Of a stretch of 64,000 nucleotides of DNA, positions 39,093 through 40,999 are shown piece after piece. The stretch comes from Escherichia coli (GTDB lineage Bacteria; Pseudomonadota; Gammaproteobacteria; Enterobacterales; Enterobacteriaceae). Under the pieces are notes generated by a model. That model saw nothing but the letters and a program-made list of their open reading frames with translations. It did not search any database and was not told the origin of the DNA. Within the stretch, counting starts at the first letter, position 1, and each line of letters opens with the position of its first letter. Both the position numbers and the translations under genes were made by a program. The stretch is from assembly GCF_013315695.1 (NCBI RefSeq), contig NZ_CP054353.1. One strand, given 5' to 3'.

Positions 39093-39106
39093 TACTGTAT
39101 ATAAAA
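39093..39106 (+). promoter_or_regulatory. Left part of a split LexA box (TACTGTATATAAAA)
   Basis: CTG half-site retained. The position where CAG should lie is now GGT of the IS end. Confidence 0.75.
39099..39106. repeat. Target-site duplication, left copy (ATATAAAA)
   Basis: Identical to 40992..40999 and immediately outside the left inverted repeat. Confidence 0.9.
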
Positions 39107-39205
39107 GGGTCTTCCCCTGTTGTGGTGGGTGGTACATAATTGAGTGATTTTCAAACACCACACAGTACCTTTATGGTGTCTCTTTTTACATGAGAGGGAA
39201 TTCTT

Positions 39206-39724
39206 ATGAGTGTGCCGCAAACAAAAGCTGAACTGCTTTTAGCTATTGATAAAAATTTTAGTAAATTAATTAGTTACCTCAACACAATCCCACCAGAAAT
39301 TACTTCAGATAAATCAATGGACGGACACGCCAAAGGAACGGAGATGAGTGTTCGTGATCTCGTTTCGTATCTGCTTGGATGGAATGCTCTTGTTGTAAAG
39401 TGGATCGCTTCTGATGCTAAAGGTCTGCCTGTCGATTTTCCGGAAACTGGCTATAAATGGAATCAGCTTGGCCTTCTTGCTCAAAAATTTTACTCAGATT
39501 ACAGTGAGTTAAGTTATGAGTTGTTAGTAGCTGAACTTCAGACTGTAAAAAATGAGATTGTGAACCTTATTAATGATCGTACCGATGATATTTTGTATGG
39601 AAGACCATGGTACACAAAATGGACGATGGGGAGAATGATCTCATTTAACACATCTTCGCCTTACGCCAACGCTAATGGAAGATTAAGAAAGTGGGCAAAA
39701 AATAATAATATCAGTTTAAAGTAA
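39206..39724 (+). CDS. ClbS/DfsB-family (DUF1706) four-helix-bundle protein, colibactin self-protection-like
   Basis: 172 aa with GAGAGGG RBS. Motifs GHAKGT..SVRDLVSYLLGW, FPETGYKWNQLGLLAQKFY, LYGRPWYTKWTMGRMISFNTSSPYANANGRLRKW match my recollection of ClbS and its family. Confidence 0.8.
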   Translation: MSVPQTKAELLLAIDKNFSKLISYLNTIPPEITSDKSMDGHAKGTEMSVRDLVSYLLGWNALVVKWIASDAKGLPVDFPETGYKWNQLGLLAQKFYSDYSELSYELLVAELQTVKNEIVNLINDRTDDILYGRPWYTKWTMGRMISFNTSSPYANANGRLRKWAKNNNISLK

Positions 39725-39742
39725 GCTTCAGAATGAAATTAT

Positions 39743-40963
39743 ATGGACGAAAAATCCCTCTATGCCCATATCCTTAACCTGACTGCACCATGGCAGGTTA
39801 AATCCCTTACCCTCGATGAAAATGCAGGTTCCGTTACTGTTACAGTCGGAATTGCTGAAAATACTCAGTTAACCTGTCCGACCTGCAGGAAATCCTGTTC
39901 TGTTCACGATCACCGACATCGTAAATGGCGCCACCTTGATACCTGCCAGTTCATGACATTAGTAGAAGCCGATGTTCCCCGCGTTATGTGCCCGGAGCAT
40001 GGCTGCCAGACTCTGCCTGTACCGTGGGCAGGTTCCGGCAGTCGGTACACTCTGCTGTTCGAATCGTTCGTGCTCTCATGGCTTAAAATCAGCACCGTTG
40101 ATGCGGTCAGAAAACAACTTAAACTTAGCTGGAATGCCGTTGACGGCATCATGACCCGCGCGGTTAAGCGAGGCCTGTCGCGGATTAAAAAGCCTTTATC
40201 AGTGCGTCATATGAATGTAGACGAAGTCGCCTTTAAAAAAGGGCATAGGTATATAACCGTGGTATCTGATCGCGACGGGCGGGCACTGGCATTAACCGAT
40301 GATCGTGGCACAGAGAGTCTTGCCAGCTATCTCCGTTCGCTTACTGACAGTCAGTTGTTGGCCATCAAAACACTGTCGATGGACATGAATGCGGGCTATA
40401 TAAGAGCAGCGCGTATCCATTTACCCAATGCGGTCGAGAAAATCGCCTTCGATCGCTTCCATGTGGCGAAGCAACTGGGCGAAGTGGTTGATAAAACCCG
40501 CCAGAATGAACATCCGCACCTCCCTGTTGAAAGTCGTCGTCAGGCCAAAGGTACCCGCTTCCTGTGGCAGTACAGCGACAAATGGATGACTGAGTCCCGG
40601 CAGGAAAAGCTGATGTGGTTGCGGGAACAGATGCAACAGACAAGCCAGTGCTGGACACTGAAAGAGCTGGCAAAAAATATCTGGGATCGCCCCTGGAGCA
40701 CAGAACGCAGGAATGACTGGTTGCAGTGGATATCGCTGGCGTCTGAATGTGATGTGCCGATGATGAAAAACGCAGCGAAAACCATTAAAAAACGGTTATA
40801 CGGAATACTGAATGCAATGCGTCATCGCGTCTCGAATGGAAATGCGGAGGCGCTGAACAGCAAGATCAGACTGCTGAGGATAAAGGCCAGGGGATACCGA
40901 AACCGGGAACGCTTTAAACTGGGAGTTATGTTCCACTATGGGAAACTGAATATGGCGTACTGA
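39743..40963 (+). CDS. ISL3-family transposase
   Basis: 406 aa. N-terminal zinc-finger-like CPTC...CPEHGC, then a DDE_Tnp_ISL3-like body. Starts 18 bp after the passenger gene. Confidence 0.9.
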
Positions 40964-40991
40964 GTCTTCCCACCATGATCGGGGAAGACCC

Positions 40992-40999
40992 ATATAAAA
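40992..40999. repeat. Target-site duplication, right copy (ATATAAAA)
   Basis: Identical to 39099..39106 and immediately outside the right inverted repeat. Confidence 0.9.

Follow-up and report, generated by a model that had tools for sequence, protein, structure and literature searches.

Insertion sequences (IS) that home to a short, repeated and functional palindromic motif of their hosts are known from IS1397 and ISKpn1, which target repetitive extragenic palindromic (REP) sequences, and from the IS1111-attC group, another set of sequence-specific IS. Here we analyse a 64,000-nt stretch of Escherichia coli DNA (RefSeq assembly GCF_013315695.1, contig NZ_CP054353.1; 'the window' below), in which ISEc53, an ISL3-family element with a ClbS-like passenger gene, has split the LexA operator of the SOS gene sbmC. 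The likeness to those systems lies in the kind of motif that is sought; in contrast to them, the element belongs to the ISL3 family, and the motif is the operator of a global stress regulator, split symmetrically and with its spacer duplicated. The junctions of ISEc53, ISKox3, ISCfr12 and wide ISL3 relatives show a common rule, by which these elements insert almost exclusively at the centre of CTGT-N8-ACAG and duplicate its spacer, and this 16-bp palindrome is the LexA (SOS) operator of the gamma- and beta-proteobacteria. The targeting is statistically very strong and appears new in the accessible literature: in open-access full texts, with ISfinder and subscription journals outside the search, we found no IS described as targeting LexA operators, only engineered LexA-fusion transposases and unrelated co-mentions for LexA together with target selection, and only incidental mentions of ISEc53.

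Among described relatives, ISKox3 and ISCfr12 of the Enterobacterales have transposases 90–93% identical to that of ISEc53, near-identical terminal inverted repeats (IRs), 8-bp duplications and the CTGT-N8-ACAG target; they measure 1,315–1,316 bp (ISKox3, 1,316 bp) and have no passenger, whereas ISEc53, with its cargo, is 1,885 bp long. A 'clbS-like transposon', in which a clbS-like gene likewise adjoins a single ISL3 transposase, has been described by Maklin et al. 2025 (bioRxiv 10.1101/2025.11.17.686825), who propose the spread of colibactin immunity via pUTI89-like plasmids and the chromosomes of sequence type (ST) 131 C1/C2, ST69 and ST95. Their preprint places the pair 'near otherwise unrelated genes' and makes no mention of LexA, SOS or promoters, whereas here the neighbours are related as SOS operators; nor did a non-exhaustive check of it find a passage on element ends or duplications. 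The idea of such an element, put forward in a prediction made from the letters of the window (the original prediction below), is right, though not new, as element and cargo are already annotated and published.

Target sites of ISEc53 and its relatives

In the window ISEc53 lies between dacD and sbmC, and the locus comprises the following features.

37836..39008, + strand: dacD, the upstream flank (Pfam Peptidase_S11 and PBP5_C; annotated dacD in other genomes); the annotated start is possibly a few codons later
39093..39106, + strand: left-hand part of the interrupted sbmC LexA operator, made up of TACTGT and the spacer, on the upstream DNA
39099..39106: left copy of the 8-bp target-site duplication, ATATAAAA, the LexA box spacer
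39107..40991, + strand: ISEc53, a complete ISL3-family insertion sequence with cargo, 1,885 bp
39107..39129, + strand: left terminal inverted repeat (IRL), GGGTCTTCCCCTGTTGTGGTGGG, of which about 25 nt are conserved in ISKox3 and other relatives
39132..39742, boundaries approximate, + strand: AT-rich cargo module between IRL and the transposase start, from the ISKox3 alignment and GC content
39206..39724, + strand: ClbS/DfsB-like (DUF1706) passenger gene, 172 aa (Pfam PF08020)
39743..40963, + strand: ISL3-family DDE transposase, 406 aa (Pfam PF01610, PF13542 and PF14690; NCBIfam NF033550)
40964..40989, + strand: small palindrome in the right end, with an 8-bp stem, GTCTTCCC-N10-GGGAAGAC (pattern positions)
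40969..40991, − strand: right terminal inverted repeat (IRR), reverse complement GGGTCTTCCCCGATCATGGTGGG
40992..40999: right copy of the 8-bp target-site duplication, ATATAAAA
40992..41005, + strand: right-hand part of the interrupted sbmC LexA operator, made up of the spacer and ACAGTA; the sbmC ATG follows after 14 nt
41020..41493, + strand: sbmC (gyrI), encoding an SOS-regulated DNA gyrase inhibitor (Pfam GyrI-like; annotated sbmC in Nissle 1917 and others)

Removal of the element together with one copy of the duplication restores TACTGTATATAAAAACAGTA, 14 nt upstream of the sbmC ATG, and the 8-bp duplication is exactly the 8-bp spacer of this operator. The restored sequence is listed as the sbmC LexA motif among ultraviolet (UV)-induced genes (PMC3009722, Table 4); it departs from the consensus TACTG(TA)5CAGTA in two positions of the spacer, and its CTGT and ACAG arms are both intact. 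That this target was the LexA operator of sbmC had escaped the original prediction, while the empty site it foresaw, an uninterrupted dacD-sbmC region with a single ATATAAAA, is found in identical form in 5,130 of the 5,426 complete E. coli genomes. In 79 genomes the dacD-IS junction is seen, among them Nissle 1917 and ATCC 25922. The empty-site query as such matched in 5,417 genomes, with a coverage of at least 80% in the 5,130, and some 200 genomes therefore have another change at the sbmC operator, possibly a different element or the opposite orientation.

The same arrangement is seen at dinD, where an ISKox3 copy between yicC and dinD is flanked by ATATAAAT, the empty site is AACTGTATATAAATACAGTT and the duplication is again the operator spacer; AACTGTATATAAATACAGTT is listed as the dinD LexA motif in the same table of UV-induced genes (PMC3009722, Table 4). 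This operator has been hit independently by ISEc53 and ISKox3.

A scan of one genome per bacterial species for exact matches to the 23-nt right-end sequence returned 46 loci, nearly all in Enterobacterales genera. Among the 42 unique right flanks, 31 have ACAG at offset +9 to +12 (background per position, 0.0041; P = 5e-65), whereas at each other offset it turns up once at most; the position matrix of the right flank reads (AT)4-ACAGT. When the species scan was pooled with 80 metagenome loci (transposases 66–100% identical) and the E. coli contexts, 97 non-redundant junction sets were obtained, de-duplicated by flank sequence and drawn from many genera plus metagenomes, in which CTGT is found at 50 of 59 unique left half-sites (P about 2e-109) and ACAG at 62 of 87 right half-sites. 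Of the 29 elements whose 8-bp duplication is exact, 28 lie in CTG-N10-CAG, with spacers that are 90% A/T. That the flank motif is part of the element itself is excluded by the variability of the duplicated spacer and by the 5,130 empty sites.

The adjoining SOS genes include umuD/umuDC (many times), the plasmid-borne dinI-umuD-umuC operon, dinD, dinI, symE, sbmC and yebG. An 'ISKox3-umuD-IS26' context has been reported for IncX3 plasmids in 24 papers on NDM plasmids, and the junction in question reads GCTGT[ATGCATAT]ACAGTA. ISCfr12 has the same CTGT-N8-ACAG target, as does a Providencia element with 64% transposase identity. Among transposase homologues there is an identity gap between about 60% and 48%, below which out-group elements with transposases 44–48% identical were found in Marinobacter (CTGG[TCAAACGT]ACAG, adjoining yebG), in Achromobacter (two of three copies in CTG-N10-CAG) and in marine metagenomes (e.g. 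CTGT[ATGGATGA]ACAG, with an exact duplication). The target is therefore a trait of a wide ISL3 subgroup in gamma- and beta-proteobacteria. A tblastn search of plasmids with the Marinobacter transposase, for more out-group copies, yielded in-group elements almost exclusively.

Relative to the adjacent SOS gene, a hand tally gave eight elements in the same orientation and eight in the divergent one, and the idea that the cargo systematically captures SOS promoters was rejected on this lack of bias. One ISEc53 copy on an E. coli chromosome lies inside an IS3-family element, between its helix-turn-helix (HTH) and rve open reading frames (ORFs), at the box-like sequence GCTGT[ATTTGTCT]CCAGT.

Several sites weigh against a strict operator rule. 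The commonest chromosomal context, with 2 of the 10 places shown and these representing 40 further similar places, is fimB, where the insertion is in ATGG-ATATATAT-ACAC of the intact K-12 gene, a degenerate motif that is without the C and G of the CTG/CAG triplets. In two fimB copies the right-hand duplication is 3 nt short (TATATACAC); two metagenome contigs have the full ATATATAT on the right side of this insertion. The motif is absent altogether from the site of one Achromobacter copy, in hasA, and several sites in symbiont genomes also depart from it. In addition, 30 of 59 full elements have non-matching flanks, most of which show CTGT+N8 on the left and a different N8+ACAG on the right (e.g. 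loci L087, L101, L104 and L122); such flanks would result if copies in two operators had recombined, or if assemblies had been joined across the repeated element.

Several of the weakest target matches come from Symbiopectobacterium and Sodalis symbiont genomes. Many symbiont contigs, of Candidatus Symbiopectobacterium (L007–L009, L012, L022, L025, L029, L031, L032, L040, L041, L043 and L046) and Sodalis (L014), start or end near an IS end, and this suggests a large copy-number expansion of the IS. ISSoEn4 of Sodalis pierantonius, with a transposase 71% identical, falls in the same clade. ISKox3-type elements with enterobacterial-style flanks were also found under Arthrobacter mobilis (L021), a Chloroflexota metagenome-assembled genome (L028) and Vagococcus sp. 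(L034), two of them on very short contigs (1.5–1.7 kb), and are probably contamination rather than evidence of true hosts.

How the operator may be recognised

We lean slightly towards an intrinsic read-out of the target, in which a symmetric transposase complex would itself read TGT/ACA on either side of an A/T-rich 8-bp spacer. As genomes hold this motif almost only as LexA boxes, the element would in effect home to SOS operators. Each insertion would then destroy the operator, leave one half-site on either side and part the SOS gene from its promoter; in the orientation seen here, the DNA upstream of sbmC would now face the ClbS-like gene. SOS operators are found in every enterobacterial chromosome and on many conjugative plasmids (in umuDC- and impCAB-type operons), and would offer non-essential landing sites as well as a route between hosts.

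Rather doubtful, in our judgement, is that the transposase is instead guided by LexA, being recruited by the operator-bound repressor or needing its distortion of the A/T-rich spacer, and equally doubtful is the corollary that the flank motif would reflect LexA's preference and not that of the transposase. The flank position matrix does reproduce the LexA consensus TACTG(TA)5CAGTA, outer A/T positions included, and nearly all target sites are genuine SOS operators that precede known SOS genes. Transposases only 44–48% identical also keep the target in distant hosts with the same LexA motif, which is more readily understood with LexA as the conserved partner. The non-operator sites, however, retain partial TGT/ACA and an A/T-rich spacer, and the very successful fimB insertion, in ATGG-(AT)4-ACAC, is without the CTG/CAG triplets, which are essential for LexA binding. 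In the 18 half-sites that have no CAG, A, C and A occupy +9 to +11 in 12, 12 and 11 of 18, respectively (P = 1e-3, 6e-5 and 6e-3), and the spacers are 76% A/T. The transposase itself has the standard ISL3 domains and no extra interaction module, and a bound LexA dimer would cover the phosphates that are to be attacked. Two points temper the case for direct read-out by the transposase: its residual ACA signal comes from these 18 half-sites, which may include mutated or mis-assembled ones, and direct and LexA-assisted targeting are inseparable by sequence data, because a CTGT-(A/T)8-ACAG sequence in a genome is nearly always a LexA box. Spacer composition was tried as a discriminator and is uninformative, E. 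coli LexA boxes being about 88% A/T by a hand estimate (from PMC3009722) and the target spacers 90%.

We consider it very improbable that there is no operator targeting at all, and that a plain A/T preference has been turned into an SOS association by selection after insertion or by clonal sampling. The general description of the ISL3 family is indeed one of 8-bp A/T-rich duplications, and many database copies are clonal, among them the ST131 fimB copy, the IncX3 plasmids and the pUTI89-like plasmids. This explanation fails because of the positional precision of the sites: the register of the right flanks is fixed to the base, with ACAG at +9 in 31 of 42 unique sites and at most one at other offsets. 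The sites were, moreover, de-duplicated by flank and come from many genera and metagenomes, and two different elements have hit the dinD operator independently. A fuller form of the LexA-guided scheme, an operator-homing ISL3 subgroup whose targeting depends on LexA, which drops its cargo behind SOS promoters and destroys the operator as it does so, we regard as unlikely.

The mobile unit and its cargoes

The terminal inverted repeats of ISEc53 are identical at the first 11 of 11 bases, then have GGTGGG in common, and agree at 18 of 23 positions; the termini are conserved across relatives. The cargo and transposase ORFs are on the same strand with a gap of 18 bp. The 11-mer core of the repeats occurs at the two element ends and at no further position in the 64-kb window, which rules out a cryptic internal repeat separating cargo and transposase, and the gap itself contains no IR-like sequence. 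The original prediction was accurate on the coordinates and terminal identity of the repeats, on the exact duplication of ATATAAAA, on the two same-strand ORFs (172 and 406 aa, 18 bp apart) and on the lack of an extra repeat between them. Its assignment to the ISL3 family is likewise borne out: the transposase matches PF01610 (E = 1e-58), PF13542 and PF14690, each above the gathering score (Pfam names DDE_Tnp_ISL3, HTH_Tnp_ISL3 and Zn_ribbon_ISL3), and scores 328 bits against a cut-off of 180 with the NCBIfam equivalog NF033550, 'ISL3 family transposase'. With a zinc ribbon/HTH DDE transposase, imperfect IRs in the range of roughly 15–40 bp and an 8-bp duplication, the element at 39107–40991 belongs to the ISL3 family.

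It is also one that RefSeq has already named, since its 1,885 bp are 100% identical in nucleotide sequence to copies annotated as ISEc53 with a ClbS/DfsB gene. A megablast search of 5,426 complete E. coli genomes with the 1,885 bp found a copy covering at least 80% of the element in 656 genomes. On chromosomes and plasmids together, 723 records match at 99% identity or more, none at 95–99%, 15 at 90–95% and 1,305 at 80–90%; the last align solely from the transposase ATG to the right end, and most of those listed are annotated as the cargo-less ISKox3. No cargo-less ISEc53 copy at 99% identity or more was found in these complete genomes, and the idea of such copies was rejected, the cargo-less elements being the distinct ISKox3 and ISCfr12.

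The structure exceeds chance by far: the 1,885-bp unit recurs in the 723 records at a wide range of sites, with an 8-bp duplication of its own at each. In a collection of public assemblies, ten contexts that encode exactly this cargo protein resolve into seven distinct sites, each of which holds the 1,885-bp element. Since the unit is constant at different sites and the empty site has one ATATAAAA, the cargo belongs to the mobile unit; these copies show, as far as their sequences can, that cargo and transposase would move as one 1,885-bp unit through 8-bp staggered target cuts. The original prediction had placed the passenger within the transposable unit, and this stands, all independent copies examined being 1,885 bp long with the same ends; its question of a named ISL3 member is answered by ISEc53, every copy of which at 99% identity or more includes the passenger.

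Aligned at their left ends, ISEc53 and ISKox3 agree over the first 25 nt or so of IRL, after which no homology is seen until the transposase ATG; an AT-rich module of some 610 bp therefore fills the slot between IRL and transposase. The module has a GC content of 0.37–0.39 against about 0.50 in the transposase gene, and for the two genes the values are 37.6% (39206–39724) and 50.4% (39743–40963), or 33% and 55% at third codon positions. The AT-richness of the passenger, judged by eye in the original prediction, is thus confirmed by computation, and together with the ISKox3 alignment the difference supports a chimeric origin of ISEc53.

ISKox3 has a Shine-Dalgarno-like AGAGG ahead of its transposase ATG (L001:1480–1500), and the 18 nt from the cargo stop to the transposase ATG in ISEc53 (39725–39742, GCTTCAGAATGAAATTAT) contain no Shine-Dalgarno-like sequence; the ISEc53 transposase may therefore be translated less efficiently, or in coupling with the cargo gene. 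The palindrome in the right end begins directly after the transposase stop codon (40961–40963) and is partly kept in ISKox3.

The cargo protein matches PF08020 (DUF1706; E = 3e-54) with residues 1–165 on profile positions 1–166 of 166. ClbS (PDB 6ANR) is of the same DUF1706 family, and the two are 53.6% identical over 166 aligned positions, ungapped through residue 103. Tyr55 of the cargo (DLVSYLLGW) aligns with Tyr55 of ClbS (NLVSYLIGW), which we take to be its catalytic residue, and the surrounding motif is conserved. ClbS is encoded in the pks island, whereas the ClbS-like gene of the window is encoded on an IS and its activity on colibactin is predicted from sequence. The cargo is 100% identical to PDB 5COF, and its membership of the four-helix-bundle group named in the RefSeq product follows from this identity to a solved structure. 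Besides 6ANR it strongly matches four further DUF1706 structures. Its identity with the Escherichia albertii protein tested by Silpe et al. was not established, the accessions being different (WP_000115842 and, for Nissle, WP_000115885).

The cargo probably hydrolyses colibactin as ClbS does. Besides the conserved Tyr55 and the overall identity, all ClbS-like proteins at 25–80% identity that were tested by Silpe et al. 2022 protected against colibactin, and the preprint of Maklin et al. reports an epidemiological association with lineages that compete with pks+ strains. That it is no colibactin-resistance gene here, and instead the precursor of a toxin, a detoxifier of another electrophile or neutral hitch-hiking DNA, seems to us an improbable alternative, which nevertheless has points in its favour. 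DUF1706/DfsB proteins have other reported roles, e.g. as the precursor of the 'sibling lethal factor' of Paenibacillus; the family includes the 'Sibling bacteriocin' 5CIV; 5COF carries the deposition title 'Uncharacterized protein', and the cargo has no match among the NCBIfam models. The insertion in the window is moreover common to Nissle 1917 and ATCC 25922, which are presumably already clbS+ via the pks island, and experiments on the clbS-like gene are still needed according to Maklin et al.

Other relatives have other genes in the same slot, 5′ of the transposase, or at its 3′ side. In Rahnella the 5′ cargo is a protein of 116 aa with two tandem SH3 domains (R. woolbedingensis, L004; R. 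perminowiae, L011; R. ecdela, L047), and in elements of 2,215 bp (L027, L119 and L129) it is one of 293 aa that matches no Pfam or NCBIfam model. A 1,982-bp relative in Yersinia pekkanenii (L036:4–1985, reverse) carries in this position a kinase of 196 aa of the OspG type (Pfam OspG_kinase, E = 2.5e-88, with a weak match to NleH), that is, a type III effector-like gene on an IS. On the 3′ side of the transposase, 1,761-bp elements (L013:3462–5222, reverse; also L111 and L112) carry a FosA-type fosfomycin-resistance glutathione transferase of 133 aa (NCBIfam Fos_GSH, 199.7 against a cut-off of 180); inserted in CTGT[ATATGCAT]ACAG, this is a resistance gene on an operator-targeting IS. All these cargoes have a GC content of 0.36–0.45, against 0.50–0.53 for the transposase gene.

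Consequences for sbmC and the SOS regulon

The two junctions in the window read CTGT-N8-GGGT on the left and ACCC-N8-ACAG on the right, which rules out that a LexA box has been re-created at either. As each has a single half-site, sbmC would be expected to have lost its control by LexA. Only 14 nt lie between the operator and the sbmC ATG, and any sbmC promoter would therefore have been upstream of the box or over it; we infer that it now lies 1.9 kb from sbmC and faces the ClbS-like gene, and that sbmC expression would have to come from read-through or from an outward promoter. Within the element, a scan of the + strand with the sigma-70 consensus found no convincing promoter for the cargo, and the region has no more promoter-like hits than shuffled sequence would give, which weighs against firm statements on expression.

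Nissle 1917 and ATCC 25922 are, we assume, pks+ strains, and the dacD-sbmC insertion is common to both; in this lineage the ClbS-like gene therefore probably accompanies rather than replaces the pks island. The original prediction had held that the cargo would spread protection without the island. A spread of colibactin immunity is also argued for in the preprint of Maklin et al., which further reports carriage in pks+ isolates, in keeping with the lineage of the window; to that lineage, presumably already pks+, the prediction probably does not apply.

Elsewhere in the window three tRNA-Asn genes lie within 4.3 kb (52680–56988). Clusters of this kind are a classic integration region for genomic islands. 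A pks island inside the window was rejected: neither an island nor ORFs of megasynthase size were found within the 64 kb, and the ORFs around the tRNA-Asn genes look like ordinary metabolic and transport genes, with a MatE transporter between the second and third tRNA-Asn gene and an AMP nucleosidase, a major facilitator superfamily (MFS) transporter and a glycosyltransferase-like protein beyond them.

The finding would give a base-precise target rule for a family that is usually described as merely A/T-preferring, and this rule could predict the landing sites of ISKox3, ISEc53 and ISCfr12, including those on the clinically important IncX3 and IncF plasmids. Breakage of the operator parts SOS genes (umuDC, dinD, sbmC, symE and dinI) from their control regions, so that the elements may be a recurrent natural source of variation in the SOS regulon, including the expression of the error-prone polymerase V. 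The split sbmC operator of Nissle 1917 and ATCC 25922 is relevant to studies that use sbmC or SOS reporters and to those on tolerance to gyrase poisons, and the cargo slot of the relatives holds genes of medical relevance, for FosA-type fosfomycin resistance and for an OspG/NleH-type effector kinase. If homing were indeed LexA-dependent, the global repressor of the host would be the targeting factor of an IS subgroup with ClbS-like, FosA-type and effector kinase cargoes, the umuDC-type operators of conjugative plasmids would be its shuttle between species, and transposition would both respond to the SOS regulon and rewire it.

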